Below, one piece after another: positions 21,781-58,416 of a DNA stretch of 64,000 nt (position 1 is its first letter; every line of letters starts with the position of its first letter). The stretch covers positions 32,550,001 to 32,614,000 of the forward strand of contig OZ024754.1 of assembly GCA_964016885.1 (NCBI GenBank), read 5' to 3'. Under the pieces are notes generated by a model that was given only the letters and a program-made list of their open reading frames with translations, searched no databases and was not told where the DNA came from. Source of the DNA: Eledone cirrhosa (Eukaryota). The position numbers and the translations under genes were made by a program.

Positions 21781-22138
21781 ATATAGAAATGGCTTCTAAA
21801 CATTCCTGGTGATTTCTTTGAATGAAACAGTTCTGGTCATCTTGAAACTATTTCTATATTAAACACTCTACTAATTTATTGAGTACCTTACTAATTGTAG
21901 GTACCTCCGATTTATCCCGGGACTCATATATATATATATGTATAGTTTTTTGGAATATAGAAATGGCTTCTACAGGACTAGAACTGTTTCATTCTAAGGA
22001 AATCATCAGGAAAGCCATGATGATTTCCTTCGAATGAAACAGTTCTAGTCATGTAGAAGCCATTTCTATATTAGAAATTTATACTCTGTTATGTTTTGAG
22101 TACCTTACTTACTGTGGTTACCCCCGATTGAACCCGGG

Positions 22139-22640: not shown

Positions 22641-22827
22641 GTTTCTACATTAGGCACAATGCCAGCAAATACTCAGTGTATTACTGGTACTTTATTTTAT
22701 CGACTCCGTAAGGATGAAAGGCAAAGTTAACCTCGGCGGGATTTGAACTCAGAAGGGCAAGGGCCGTAAATCTATGCGTCAAAGCATGGCGTCCGACCCT
22801 CTACCGATACTGCCAATCCACCGCCCT
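22637..22827 (-). mobile_element. SINE main family, full length
   Basis: Head ggcggtggattggcagtatcggtagagggtcggacgcc, B box, core, tail. Confidence 0.92.
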
Positions 22828-22859
22828 TATATATATATAATGAAATGCAAAGTTGGTAT

Positions 22860-23615: not shown

Positions 23616-24424
23616 AAATACAACACACAAAGTCCAGTAAAAAAACAACAACAACAAAAACAAGCAATATAAAACGTATATTATATAAAATAAACATTAT
23701 AGTTGCAGATTAACTGAAAATGTTAGAAAAAAAAAAAGCGTTTCAAATAGAGAACATTCGTTATAGCCGATCATAAACGGGTATTAATAATATATTAGGA
23801 AAATACACGAATTAAAAATCTCTCTCGTTACTAACAAACCATAAACCACAAAATGAATTCCTAAAGTTTAATGAAAGCATGAAAGTTGTAATTTTCAGAA
23901 CTCAAAATCTTATATTCGATACATAAGTACAGCAATTATGGTCTGTGTATAATAATATGACATGCCATACCATGGGGCCTTGACAACCGGTAGAATCATA
24001 GTGTGCAGCAGAACTGATATACTTTGGCATTTAAACTTGGCAGATTCAATCCTTCTCCACGTCTACACAGAGAAGGCTGTATATAATATAAAAAGTGATG
24101 TGCTCATGTTGGGAGATGCTATAAAAATTGTTTATAAGATCGAGAGAAGACCCTTTAGGACGGACGAAAGAAGTTGCCACCGGTTGCTATATGCATATAT
24201 ACCTTTTCGGTTATATACATATATACCTTTTCAATGCTCAGAGAGTAGGATTGGTCGAGTGCAAGGCCTTTCACAACTTAAAAATCCTTCAAAGCACAGG
24301 CATTGCTTGTTCAGGATCGTGCGGCTGGCTGTAGCCTAAAGGTACACCATTTTCTGAAATCTGAAAAGCGATTGCAATACTCTTAGCAGAGTTTGCAGCT
24401 AACATATATGTATATATAATATGG

Positions 24425-24520
24425 AACTAGCTGTTGAAACGACAAGAGCTCAGTCGTCGGGGTCCCGACTCTTTCATATTACCACCTTCTACTACCCCAA
24501 GTATCGAGTAGTCTGGTCAG
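24425..24520 (+). mobile_element. Diverged family C arm
   Basis: tagctgttgaaacgacaagagctcagtcgtcggggtcc..ctactaccccaagtat. Confidence 0.75.
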
Positions 24521-24624
24521 TAATGACCTAACAGGTTTTAACACCATCCATTTTGGCAGCGAGATGAAGAGACCTGGCTTAAACTTCGAAGTCACTGCCA
24601 ATAGTGTATGTGATTCATTGAATT

Positions 24625-27307: not shown

Positions 27308-27550
27308 GATAGCGTATATGTATGTTATATGCATATATATATATATACACAATATACATATATATTTACATATAATACACATAAAGGCACACACTCGCAC
27401 ACACATACGCATACAATCACCACACACAGAAACGTAACCCGAAACTGTAGGCTTACATGAATGAACAACCACCAAGTTATACATACGTGCTGGCACACAC
27501 GTGCACATACAGACATAAACACATACTCTTCCATACATATATATATATTT

Positions 27551-27734
27551 GGGAAAGATTCAGGACCCCGACGGCTGAGCTCCGGCCTTTTCGAGAGCTA
27601 AATACGGATCTAGCTGTCGAAACGGCCGGAGTTTACAATCGGGGTCCTGACTCTTTTCCTATTACCCACTCTACTACCTTAAGTATTGAGCACTCTGGTG
27701 CGTTATGGTCCACCTGGTATCTTACCACACCCTG

Positions 27735-27737
<3 letters not shown>
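27551..27737. mobile_element. Family C hairpin element (diverged palindrome plus tail)
   Basis: caggaccccga...tcggggtcctg then attacccactctactacc tail. Confidence 0.8.
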
Positions 27738-27955: not shown

Positions 27956-28047
27956 GTAGGAGGTGAGTTTTATTGTAGTACAATAAAGCAATGCAGATAT
28001 CGGATAAGAAGCACTCTACAGTTTGTAGAACTGGAGTATACATAATA

Positions 28048-28095: not shown

Positions 28096-28120
28096 ATATA
28101 TATATATATTATATATATAT

Positions 28121-28311
28121 GAAAAAGTTTAACCCCGGCGGGCAGAACTCAAGCCGTTTCGACGGCTATTTCTGGACTGAAATAGCCGTGGAAACGTCTT
28201 TAGCTCTGCCGTCGGGGTTAAACTTTTTCCTATTACCCACTCTACTACCCAAAGTATTGAGTACTCTGGTGCGTAATGGTCCATGTGGTTCCTTGCCACA
28301 CCTCCTTCGTT
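28121..28311. mobile_element. Family C hairpin element (palindrome 28121-28230 plus tail)
   Basis: gaaaaagtttaacccc...ggggttaaactttttc, apex tatttc-tggact-gaaata. Confidence 0.85.
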
Positions 28312-28330
28312 ATATATATATATATAGGGT

Positions 28331-28580
28331 AAAAAGATGAAATCGAAAATGCAACAGAAGTCTTTTTTAAAAAAATATATATTCATTTGGTTCCTTTACC
28401 GGTTTCGCAGTTCTGCTTTTCAAAAGTAGAATTGAGATGGAAGGTTTGTGGTTTTTCTCACAAACCATCCACCTCAATTCTACATTTGACAAACAAGAAC
28501 TGGGAAACCGGTAAAGGAACCAAATAAATATATATTTAAAAAAATAGAGACTAATGTTGCATCTTCGATTTCATCTTTTT
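28331..28580. mobile_element. Diverged 250-bp palindrome with decayed hammerheads on both arms
   Basis: Minus 28393-28426 reads CTT-TTGAAAA-GCAGAACTGC-GAAA-CCGGTA-AAGG; the right arm keeps GAAACCGGTAAAGG. Confidence 0.7.
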
Positions 28581-28629
28581 TCTTTATACTTTAACTCGTG
28601 CAGGACACCTCCTTTTTCTTTTCATTTTG

Positions 28630-29113: not shown

Positions 29114-29306
29114 ATAGGAACGAGTAGGACCCCGACAGCTGAGCTCAAGCCGTTTCGACGGCTAATTCTGGACCCAGAATTAGCCGTCGAAACGGCTTGA
29201 GCTCAGCCGTCGGGGTCCTACTCGTTCCTATTACCCACTCTACTACCCCAAGTATTGAGTACTTTGGTGCGTTATGGTCCATCTGGTTCCTTACCACATT
29301 TCCTTC

Positions 29307-29309
<3 letters not shown>
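29114..29309. mobile_element. Family C hairpin element, near-perfect 118-bp palindrome plus tail
   Basis: One mismatch between arms; each arm has GAAA-CGGCT-TGAGCTC-AGCYG-TC-GGGGTCC. Confidence 0.9.
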
Positions 29310-29347
<38 letters not shown>

Positions 29348-29352
<5 letters not shown>

Positions 29353-29538
29353 ATTAAATAAATGGAAACTATATTTATAAAACCATATTGAAATATATAT
29401 AATGAAATAAATATGGTTTTATAAATATAGTTTCCATTTATTTAATATTGTAAATATACTCCAAATATTTGTCGAGTGCTTTTATATCAGTTATAAATAT
29501 TTACTAGTTGTAACCCAACAATTTAAATATAACTTTCC

Positions 29539-49859: not shown

Positions 49860-50258
49860 GTGGCTGCCAACTCGTTTTCGAGTACGGCCACTACTTTATA
49901 TCCATGTAGGAGAACTCCTACCGATGCGCTGAACGAGTGTGACTTTTTAGTCCAGCCAGCGACTTGAAAACTCTGGTGCAAACACTACACTTGTGACAAT
50001 TATTGACACACAGTGCTGGGCCCATGGTACCATGTGACGACAAGTGCAGAGAGATCTCCAGATATAAAGCAATGCCTGTGTCGTGAAGCTTTTATAGTGA
50101 GGAAAGGCACTGCACAAAGCCAGTCCCACTCTCTTAACCAAGATGATATTTACCAAAAAGAAGAACAAGTCAATATCATTGGATATCATCAGGGTTGCAG
50201 GTGTTATATCAGAGTTTTCCTTCTAGAATTCTGCCTTGACAAAGGCTAAGGGGTCATA
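49860..50258 (-). repeat. ~400-bp dispersed repeat, inverted partner of 56893-57294
   Basis: High identity and same boundaries. Confidence 0.9.
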
Positions 50259-51091: not shown

Positions 51092-51597
51092 TTGTGCCTA
51101 AATCAGAAACCATTATTACTTATTTCAATGGCAGTATCCTAGAGGTTGGAAGGTGTCAATAGAAGACCACCCGGCGTTTATGATCTGAATGAGACCCGGA
51201 ATCCTTAATGTGTAAGGAGTTAAGGGCAAAACCATTTGCATAAGGGGCGGGGGTTTCTTCTTTGAAGACATTCTTTGTTCAACTCTCTACTGTTTCTTAA
51301 TACCAACATAACTAAGTTAGTAACTTAACATATTGGTCTTATATAAATTATGTAGGAAACTTTTCAGTTTAATACGAAGCCTTTAAAATAGGTAGTTGGG
51401 TTTCATAGAAGAAGAGACCAGGTTGGTATGAAATGGGTGAATCTCATCCACAAATATAGCTAGGACCAGCTTTTCCCGCTTTACAGATATGTTACAAGAT
51501 CTTCAAGCATAGGGTGTGCTTCTACCTCACATTCTGTGCAACTCTCTGTCAGTCTGTATATACAACAAAAACGACATCATCAACAACATCATTAAAA

Positions 51598-51927
51598 AAT
51601 AATTGTTTCTACTTTTGGCACAAGGCCAGCAATTACCCAGTGCATTACTGGTACTTTATTTTATCGACCCCGTAAGGACGAAAGGCAAAGTCAACCTCGG
51701 CAGGATTTGAACTCAGATCAGAAAGGGGCGTAACTCTGTGCTACAAAGCATGTTGTCCGACCCTCTACCAATACTGCCAAACCACCGCCCTAAAAAATAA
51801 TAATAGCAATCAGTTGTAGTACTAATAATAATAATAATAATAACAACAATGATAATAATTGTTTCTACTTTTGGCACAAGGCCAGCAATTACCCCAGTGT
51901 ATTACCTCGGTGGGATCTGAACTCAGA
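51598..51927 (-). mobile_element. SINE main family: full copy 51598-51791 and internally deleted copy 51855-51927
   Basis: Shared tail, core and B box. Confidence 0.88.
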
Positions 51928-54565: not shown

Positions 54566-54569
<4 letters not shown>

Positions 54570-54799
54570 GTATAAAAATCAATACAATATAATTACCTCA
54601 TTACCAGAGGTTTCTCGAATGACGCGAATACGAAATAAACGAATGAAGTCGTTTATTTCGTATTCGCCTCATTCGGGAAACCTCTGGTAATGAGGTAATT
54701 ATATTGTATTGATTTTTATACATTAAATTTTGCTCTGATACTTACATAGAGCACTCTTCATTTCTATGACCTTTTCTGTTTCCAACGGAAATTTCAATA

Positions 54800-55695: not shown

Positions 55696-55863
55696 ATTAA
55701 TCTGTTATTTTAATAAATATATATATATATATGCAAAAGTTTTATTTAAAATTGTTGGGTTACAACAAGTAAATATTTTATAACTGGTATAAAGCACTCG
55801 ACAAGTTTTTGGAGTAGATATACGATATTAAACAAATGGAAACTATATTTATAAAACCATATT

Positions 55864-55929
55864 TATTTCATTATACATATTTCGGGGATACCATATTAAA
55901 AATATGGCATGCCTTCGTCAGATAAAATA
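55864..55929 (-). ncRNA. Type I hammerhead ribozyme, family A
   Basis: Reverse complement of 56043-56108. Confidence 0.83.
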
Positions 55930-56042
55930 CAATATATAAACAGTTTTATAAATAATTTTGACGTACCATAACCATCTTCGTACATAATGGTCGCTCATAT
56001 TTATGGTACGTCAAAATTATTTATAAAACTGTTAATATATTG

Positions 56043-56108
56043 TATTTTATCTGACGAAGGCATGCCATATTTTTAATATGGTATCCCCGAAATATGTATA
56101 ATGAAATA
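56043..56108 (+). ncRNA. Type I hammerhead ribozyme, family A
   Basis: TATTTTAT/ATGAAATA stem I, CTGACGA 56051-56057, ATGCCATATT/AATATGGTAT stem II, GAAA 56089-56092, AUA site at 56100. Confidence 0.85.
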
Positions 56109-56169
56109 AATATGGTTTTATAAATATAGTTTCCATTTGTTTAATATCGTATATCTATATATCTATATA

Positions 56170-56892: not shown

Positions 56893-57294
56893 TATGACCC
56901 CTTAGCCTTTGTCAAGGCAGAATTCTAGGAGAAGGAAAACTCTGATATAACACCTGCAACCCTGATGGTATCCAATGATGTTGACTTGTTCTTCTTTTTG
57001 GTAAATATCATCTTGGTTAAGAGAGTGGCACTGGCTTTGTGCAGTGCCTTTGCTCACTATAAAAGCTTCACGGCACCGGCATTGCTTTGTATCTGGAGAT
57101 CTCTCTGCACTTGTCATCACATGGTACCATGGGCCCAGCACTATGTGTCAATAATTGTCACAAGTGTAGTGTTTATACCAGAGTTTTCAAGTCGCTGGCT
57201 GGACTAAAATGTCACACTCGTTCAGCGCATCGGTAGGGGTTCTCCTACATGGATATAAAGTAGTGGCCGTACTCGAAAACGAGTTGGCAGCCAC
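56893..57294 (+). repeat. ~400-bp dispersed repeat, inverted partner of 49860-50258
   Basis: High identity and same boundaries. Confidence 0.9.
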
Positions 57295-57569: not shown

Positions 57570-57728
57570 TATATAAGAACAAAAGATGGTTAAAAGTGTT
57601 CCATGTATTTTATTATGCGCATTTCTTTTGTTCTTATATATTATATATACTCCAGTCCTACAAACTGTAGAGTGCTTCTTATCCGATATCTGCATTGCTT
57701 TATTGTACTACAATAAAACTCACCTCCT

Positions 57729-57821: not shown

Positions 57822-58064
57822 TATGCACACGTACACGCATATATACATACATACACACACACATATATATATACAATTAGAAGGCAGCATGTTTGAATTT
57901 AACCATTTTCAATTTATAAAAATCAGTTATAGATATTTTGATGACATGTGTTATGTAATGGCCACTCGCGATCAGATTGAGCATTACATAACCGATATCA
58001 TGGAAATACGTATAACTAATTACGTTATGAATAGAATATGATGACATTCAAACATTATGTCTTG

Positions 58065-58248
58065 TGGATGGACAGTATCGGTAGAGGGTCGGACGCCATG
58101 CTTTCCAGCATAGTTACGTCCCTTTACGATCTGAGTTCAAATCCCGCCGAGGTTAACTTTGCCTTTCATCCTTACGGGGTCGATAAAATAAAGTACCAGT
58201 AATGCACTGGTTAATTGCTGGCCTTGTGCCTAACGTAGAAACAATTAT
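58065..58248 (+). mobile_element. SINE main family, full length
   Basis: Head, B box, core, tail. Confidence 0.92.
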
Positions 58249-58416
58249 GTCTTCTAGTTCATTAATATAATAACTCGCTCTGCCGTAAAGAGACCAATGT
58301 GAGAGTATGATGATGGAGCTACACATGGGGAGTGCTCAATCCTGCATACACACGTATTTAAGTATTTATTAATCTATACTTAAAAGTTAATAACGGATAT
58401 ATTAACAAGGGATAGC

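Follow-up and report, generated by a model that had tools for sequence, protein, structure and literature searches.

Within the window analysed here, a stretch of 64,000 nt from Eledone cirrhosa to which all positions refer, the element at 29114-29309 carries the 3' half of a hammerhead ribozyme twice, once in each arm of a palindrome, and the question arises how this arrangement came about and whether the half-ribozymes serve any purpose. From our point of view, the element consists of two 5'-truncated copies of one hammerhead repeat placed head to head. This repeat is most likely the pseudo-LTR end of a Penelope-like element (PLE), and what remains in the half-hammerheads is likely a passive vestige of a complete U3-A8 hammerhead, which the family has retained. 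We assign this reading a probability of about three in four.

The palindrome itself (29114-29231) is near-perfect, with arms of 58 bp, a spacer of 2 nt and (TA)n on each side, and its fold has a z-score of -20.8, a value that none of 200 shuffled sequences equalled. The right arm (29174-29228, + strand) comprises the 3' strand of stem II (29181-29188), GAAA (29189-29192), a stem III of 6 bp (29192-29210), the GUC triplet with the would-be cut after C29211, and a G-rich 3' strand of stem I with GGGGTCC (29212-29228); the catalytic 5' half is absent. The inverted arm (29117-29173, - strand) has no tail and contains the 3' end of loop II, the stem II 3' strand, GAAA (from 29156 downward), stem III, GUC and the stem I 3' strand. 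It mirrors the right arm with one mismatch and covers 2 nt more of loop II than its tail-bearing partner. The earlier note had likewise read GAAA, stem III, GUC and the 3' strand of stem I in both arms. Attached to the right arm only is a tail of 81 nt (29229-29309, + strand) that opens with TAT, in agreement with a TA target. The tail of this family also contains a short open frame of 12 codons. When tested as a type I hammerhead, the palindrome was found to lack core positions 3-9 and the 5' strands of stems I and II in cis.

A BLAST search with the 29114 element against the window only gathered nine copies or fragments, namely four palindromes, three single arms, one tail alone and one longer, complete copy. 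The other palindromes, all with a tail, lie at 28117-28311 (+ strand, with a spacer of 6 nt), at 27549-27737 (+ strand, an old copy that differs in subfamily and junction) and at 31741-31879 (- strand, collapsed at stem III and without GAAA). Single arms are found at 10506-10563 (+ strand, starting at GTCC, without a tail and with TA runs on both sides), at 24424-24525 (+ strand, diverged, with a partial tail and, in stem III, one compensatory exchange of G-C for A-U) and at 30720-30858 (- strand, starting at AGTCC, with a tail), whereas the tail-only copy (33399-33479, - strand) sits inside (TA)n and the complete member (9445-9631, - strand), a type I hammerhead with a U3-A8 core, is without a tail. 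Palindromes, each of them an inverted pair of 5'-truncated copies, hence account for four of the nine copies; one of the four is centred on stem III, and the tail is one-sided in all four. TA runs stand on both sides of eight copies and on one side of the remaining one. The hammerhead 3' region is present in eight window copies, seven of which are without the 5' half. None of the nine starts at the hammerhead cut site, and none forms head-to-tail tandem units. The motif CTGANGA, which the earlier note had reported missing from every copy, indeed occurs in none of them, all 27 CTGANGA sites of the window lying outside the copies. Among ten arms, a set that left out both short arms of the collapsed copy 31741-31879, 83% of 59 stem III cells are paired; the set contains one compensatory pair, a level of covariation that is not significant (129 of 500 shuffles scored as high). 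The window as a whole has the look of animal genomic DNA, rich in microsatellites and with LINE remnants, and may resemble octopus DNA.

The view that the 5' half is missing from the whole family is refuted by the copy at 9445-9631 (- strand), about 20 kb away from 29114. This copy is non-palindromic and has, upstream of GAAA, a stem II 5' strand (9529-9537), the core TTGATAA (9538-9544) and a stem I 5' strand (9545-9556), in which ACCCC and GGAA pair with the stem I 3' strand; GAAA lies at 9480-9483, C17 at 9461, and loop II is about 30 nt long. In the numbering of PMC7151607, TTGATAA reads U3 U4 G5 A6 U7 A8 A9, the C3-G8 tertiary pair being replaced by U3-A8, a natural covariation of hammerheads that is active in vitro (PMC3088659) and that is described for PLEs of Schistosoma with about 1,300 matches (PMC4209133). 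The earlier note was right that the half-hammerheads are the 3' halves of a type I hammerhead with a parent. The pattern GGACCCC-CTGANGA, by which this parent was to be sought, cannot recover it, since the parental core is TTGANAA. Fifteen metagenome loci obtained with a 20-letter core pattern were rejected as chance matches, all 15 being pattern-only and without a hammerhead 3' half.

The motif at 9445-9556 (- strand) has the paired 3-8 core, GAAA, A15.1-U16.1, H17 and the type I stem order, with 6 bp in stem II, 6 bp in stem III and 3-4 bp in stem I (3 bp ungapped) plus a distal helix of 5 bp. It is one of seven window matches to a descriptor that admits all four paired 3-8 cores. When the upstream part was shuffled 50,000 times, core and 3 bp of stem I were obtained in 2,215 cases, with 4 bp of stem II in addition in 151, and an equally good match (core, 3 bp of stem I and 6 bp of stem II) in 16. 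Over about 60 aligned bases the copy differs from the arms of 29114, 10506-10563 and 30720-30858 at two to three positions, and it is flanked by a direct repeat of 11 bp (9434-9444 and 9632-9642), likely a target-site duplication. The copy itself may be weak or dead as a ribozyme, since Rfam gave no match at gathering score anywhere in the window (around 9445-9631 there were two chance miRNA matches only), the unconstrained fold is not a hammerhead (z = -0.9; the constrained hammerhead fold lies 1.9 kcal/mol above the minimum) and one G of stem I is missing, which is present in 1,219 of 1,711 raw reads.

Whether the family at large retains the 5' half can be judged from four of nine available read sets, aligned on 9436-9640 at 80% likeness, namely X1 contigs and X7 raw reads from organism A, X5 from organism B and X6 from organism C. 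The 5' half is covered in all three organisms (in X6 by one contig) and is multi-copy. A change to G8 (T>C at 9539) reached 5% in none of the four runs, and no change was listed in them for the stem II and stem I 5' strands (9527-9535 and 9545-9549). N7 differs from the 9445-9631 copy in 209 of 267 raw reads and is usually G, and position 10.2 is usually A, which pairs with U11.2, the commonest change there restoring the A-U pair. A C3 form occurs in 14 of 265 X7 raw reads, in 38 X1 contigs amounting to 23% of the summed depth and in one X5 contig, with A8 kept, so that the core is unpaired in some 5' halves. Disruptive changes at 5% or above were found in none of stem III, GAAA and GUC in the aligned reads, the loop-closing pair excepted. 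In organisms B and C the element extends beyond 9630, and 9445-9631 is accordingly a 5'-truncated piece of a longer element. The TTCC end continues, among the loose ends listed, into the tail in 545 reads and into bare TA repeats in 847.

The summed contig depth of the 3' half relative to the 5' half is about 20:1 in X1 and about 7:1 in X5; these ratios are not copy numbers and are inflated by clipping, X1 depth being equally low at 9443-9456, a part common to all copies. The drop from the 3' to the 5' half is sharp and not gradual. In X7, read ends pile up at 9494, 9509, 9550 and 9553, where AATT sites lie; these pile-ups were discarded as a restriction artefact of the RAD library, for which reason the depth ratios of X7 were not taken for ratios of copies. 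Among the loose ends listed, one at 9491 is common to 801 raw reads and begins like the junction of 27549-27737, with a consensus agreement of only 0.64; X1 has a fold-back loose end listed at 9505 (46 contigs with an agreement of 0.5) and X6 another at 9499 (one contig). Strand-changing joints were not listed for the aligned reads, the joints table being empty. It may be added that all six G/C transitions at or above 5% on 9436-9640 run from C to U in the hammerhead sense, with no G-to-A among them, and that those located in stems leave G-U pairs, albeit in small numbers.

With the parent at hand, the apex of the palindrome can be interpreted. The earlier note had equated it with stem II, which is not borne out: its sequence matches the 3' end of the parental loop II exactly as a reverse complement, and neither the native loop nor the 5' strand of stem II is kept. 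The hairpin that precedes GAAA is consequently a duplication and not stem II, and at the apex two 5'-truncated copies meet head to head at a point within loop II. The palindrome at 28117-28311 has the same properties, its spacer being antisense to the last bases of loop II, and in both elements the tail-less arm reaches deeper into loop II than the tail-bearing one; the junction of 28117-28311 shows a microhomology of 3 nt, that of 29114 none. The spacer of 27549-27737 can be read either way, as native loop or as antisense. The three palindromes centred on the stem II region have three different junctions, and each has its own subfamily variants in both arms, from which it follows that palindromes arose at least three times. 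The notion that the palindromes themselves kept amplifying finds no support in these junctions and variants. A further type of junction, at the same spot in loop II, is found in organism C (X6).

These features would be explained if two cDNAs were made per insertion. A PLE protein would nick both strands of a (TA)n target; reverse transcription would be primed from one target end at the tail's outer end and from the other at an inner site, TTCC|TAT; both cDNAs would come to a stop close to one position of loop II, after which a blunt joint or a microhomology of 3-4 nt would connect their 3' ends. Capture of a single cDNA would leave a single arm with or without a tail, and reverse transcription that ran further would copy the complete hammerhead, as at 9445-9631. 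Self-cleavage would be unnecessary for such an insertion. We regard this mechanism as a whole, with nicks on both strands, two priming sites and joining of 3' ends, as moderately likely, and two cDNAs from two target ends with joined 3' ends predict the spacer orientation that is observed, whereas a single fold-back predicts the opposite. PLE insertions are known to be 5'-truncated, often with an inverted truncated copy, a one-sided tail and a bias for TA or microsatellite targets (PMC8557442, PMC2377424). The Poseidon protein of the anole cuts and extends both strands and uses two internal start sites of reverse transcription that define the tail, and hammerhead-dead Poseidon mutants insert normally in vitro (PMC11167929). 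This biochemistry accounts for the tail, the palindrome and the dispensable cleavage. The earlier note had taken the palindromes for products of reverse transcription, which we judge to be right if they are seen as by-products; likewise, its suggestion of an amplification without need of self-cleavage is probably correct for copying, given the normal insertion of PLE hammerhead mutants, and finds no support for an amplification of the palindromes themselves.

That the family belongs to the PLEs is something we infer, since no RT/GIY-YIG ORF linked to it was present among the 11 window ORFs scanned (of about 90), which held two LINE-type RT remnants only; the same grade applies to reading the region at 9445-9631 as a pseudo-LTR (pLTR). 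Points that speak against PLE remnants are the 81-nt tail, the excess of 3' halves, the loose end at 9491, which would also fit a palindromic master, the C3 form and the missing Rfam match, together with the non-hammerhead free fold and the lost stem I residue of 9445-9631, the non-significant stem III covariation and the empty joints table.

How the palindromes formed could be imagined differently. The earlier note held that a single tail-primed cDNA folded back on the native stem II and overwrote the 5' half, and the self-complementarity of stem II (6-9 bp) as well as the ambiguous spacer of 27549-27737 are consistent with this. Such a fold-back predicts the native loop II in sense orientation as the spacer, however, whereas the spacers of 29114 and 28117-28311 are antisense and belong to the tail-less arm; a second hammerhead family of the window (family B, see below) shows the same arm asymmetry, and the short-loop native form is absent among the read joints, of which none were listed. 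We consider it very unlikely. Even less probable, and in our opinion barely conceivable, is an origin at the DNA level in which reverse transcription was uninvolved, either MITE-like or through hairpins formed when breaks in TA arrays are repaired. Such arrays are fragile when long, and the collapsed copy at 31741-31879 does resemble a later hairpin deletion, but the ends are asymmetric with a one-sided tail, both end types lie at fixed positions, and the layout is common to at least five unrelated hammerhead-bearing families of the window. A MITE in the strict sense was rejected in view of the inverted repeat that ends 81 nt before one outer end and the existence of single-arm and tail-only copies.

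Two further alternatives concern what the half-hammerheads do. They could be one part of a split ribozyme, cut in trans as part of the family cycle by an RNA that supplies the 5' strand of stem I, the core and the 5' strand of stem II. A suitable strand is present in the complete copies, the hammerhead-shaped complex with a single-arm RNA was computed to lie 5-9 kcal/mol below the separate strands, and stem III, GAAA and GUC are kept intact in the reads to the extent described above. For palindromic RNA, in contrast, the complex is about 86 kcal/mol uphill by calculation, so that the cleavage in trans put forward in the earlier note is strongly disfavoured there; even for single arms the dimer of lowest energy is a different, non-hammerhead fold, no window copy starts at the cut site, and inheritance from complete copies suffices to explain why the 3' half is conserved. 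We regard a role of this kind as highly improbable. Less remote, and still unlikely, is that truncated or palindromic copies are themselves the source elements, forming a short, non-autonomous, hammerhead-less family whose RNA would arise by read-through and whose copying by the PLE protein would proceed via the tail. The large excess of 3' halves with its sharp boundary in read depth, the lack of the 5' half in seven of the eight relevant window copies, the recurrence of an end like that of 27549-27737 in 801 reads among the loose ends listed and the dispensability of cleavage in vitro (PMC11167929) all speak in its favour. Yet the complete copy has two to three differences from some truncated copies, which have 10-17 from other truncated copies, and being nearer to these than they are to one another it does not fit a single truncated ancestor. 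Furthermore, the junctions differ among the palindromes, with a further type in organism C, and an RNA duplex of 58 bp with about -110 kcal/mol would be a poor template. Descent of the half-hammerheads from complete U3-A8 copies hence remains our preferred explanation.

Under this explanation, the position at which the copies begin deserves attention. The start lies at (A)GTCC or no more than 3 nt from it in five arms or copies, namely 10506, 30858, the inverted arms of 29114 and 28117-28311, and probably 27549-27737. The subfamilies that share this start differ by 10-23 of about 60 bases, and the junction in organism C lies at the same spot. In both common variants it coincides with the A of TYAGTY, an initiator-like motif, which was noticed after the fact; in the unmasked sequence of the window there is one motif of this type in every 1,000 bases. 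As to why the cDNAs end within loop II, we give a fixed 5' end of the RNA, for instance a start of transcription, slightly less than an even chance. Stalling or a hot spot of microhomology is possible, and truncated master copies, which the 801-read loose end at 9491 keeps in play, appear doubtful. A splice acceptor was discarded as the cause, the arm of 28117-28311 extending through the CAG. An internal promoter in the pLTR has been described for Penelope of D. virilis (PMC2377424), and a downstream promoter element like the one reported there was not seen by eye at +28. One could speculate, as a rather doubtful proposal when taken in full, that the PLE family starts transcription in its own loop II. 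The upstream repeat would then place a half-hammerhead at the RNA 5' end that is unable to decap the message, the downstream repeat would provide the complete U3-A8 ribozyme, and reverse transcription from the 5'-most tail would run off at the cap and spread half-hammerhead copies of 150 bp as well as palindromes. If the start in loop II were indeed one of transcription, short PLE copies would map it to the base, and there would be a simple reason why PLE hammerheads spare their own message, which bears on the role of the ribozyme.

Palindromes are also seen in other hammerhead families of the window, where the apex lies upstream of the core (55815-56157, 4221-4497 and 21954-22072), in stem II (54566-54725) or at GAAA (29341-29458). 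Since the apex position varies among families, a half-hammerhead is one outcome of where the truncation falls. Family A (55815-56157, 1826-2120, 3217-3447, 29341-29523 and 39780-39936) has a type I hammerhead with a canonical core and a short palindromic stem III; one of its palindromes has the apex about 50 nt upstream of the core, and the one at 29341-29458 starts exactly at GAAA and is a second half-hammerhead palindrome. Family B (4123-4497, 30402-30634, 27968-28032 and 57587-57718) has complete hammerheads in both arms, and its palindrome at 4221-4497 shows a TGCA microhomology at the junction, with a single-arm copy and the longer palindrome arm starting at the same place. A further half-hammerhead palindrome (54566-54776) has its apex in a long stem II and no core, and a related element at 30864-31055 carries a complete hammerhead at 30912 and shares its tail. 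A palindromic family at 28323-28588, with arms that by eye read TTGA(A/C)AA before GAAA-CCGG-TA, is possibly a second U3-A8 family; the fold gave no support, and in constrained folding of the arms of family G a hammerhead was not obtained, with a left-arm slice that missed the stem I 5' strand. The motif GAG(C/T)(A/G)C(T/C) recurs in the tails of at least five otherwise unrelated families (1867, 4165, 21881, 22098, 27688, 29257, 31030, 40122, 54749, 55017 and 55793) and is, judged from this recurrence, a candidate recognition signal for the PLE protein. The motif at 57900-58030 resembles a hammerhead; its native stem II is long, its core reads TTGATGA (U3 with G8, unpaired), and it is probably decayed. 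The window additionally contains an abundant SINE-like family (9650-9995, 10285-10399, 10823-10936, 22650-22841, 37286-37483, 39024-39551, 40890-41036, 51595-51804 and 58064-58252) with a head-to-head pair at 9710-9929, LINE-type remnants at 37563-38939 (- strand) and 5316-5633 (+ strand) with matches to zf-RVT (E = 8e-4) and RVT_1 (E = 7e-7), and large inverted duplications with 96-98% identity and long spacers (1826-2401 / 2932-3447 and 49866-50253 / 56898-57288).

Overall, the family of 29114 offers a clear example of the known anatomy of PLE insertions, and its palindromes, with their longer tail-less arms and microhomology, support a two-cDNA integration step that one in vitro study of a PLE had left open. 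It also calls for caution with CTGANGA searches, which miss U3-A8 families. In the open-licence literature, neither palindromes of half-hammerheads nor a fixed start of PLE copies within loop II were found described. A study of Octopus repeats (O. vulgaris) reports 31 recently active Penelope-like families, and the terms 'ribozyme' and 'palindrom' do not occur in it (PMC13282606); the supplements of PMC4209133 and PMC8557442 list PLE hammerheads and may include the present family.

In the two-strand (I/II format) hammerheads of the laboratory, the substrate strand consists of GAAA, stem III and GUC and the enzyme strand provides the core; in the palindromic RNA, by contrast, the substrate strand is locked in a 58-bp duplex. 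Among natural systems, the insertions of Penelope/Poseidon, Neptune and Naiad share with the present family the inverted truncated copy near the 5' end, the one-sided extension, the (TA)n targets, the type I hammerhead near the 3' end and two end positions separated by the tail (PMC8557442, PMC2377424, PMC11167929). The family differs from them in its tail of 81 nt, which is atypical against the 30-40 nt in print, in that no ORF was seen, in a unit of only 150-200 bp and in truncations that cluster inside the hammerhead loop II. The hammerheads of the Schistosoma PLE Cercyon resemble it in the U3-A8 covariation, in G10.1-C11.1 and in being mostly dispersed single motifs, and minimal hammerheads of the Schistosoma genome form opposite-strand pairs 100-700 bp apart (PMC4209133). 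Unlike Cercyon, the present family has a full stem III of 5-6 bp with a 7-nt loop and a loop II of about 30 nt, and its monomer-type stem III is more reminiscent of fungal and protist PLE hammerheads. The core covariation is identical to that of other natural U3-A8 hammerheads (PMC3088659). Non-LTR retrozymes (bioRxiv 10.64898/2026.07.22.740005) are likewise short, non-coding, PLE-related and equipped with a type I hammerhead, but they form head-to-tail tandems with a whole hammerhead per unit, whereas the copies described here are head-to-head or single, carry mostly half hammerheads and, with no head-to-tail tandem among the nine, are not retrozymes. All component parts are thus already known, and the family is a new member within PLE-type anatomy that offers one testable lead, namely the common start in loop II.
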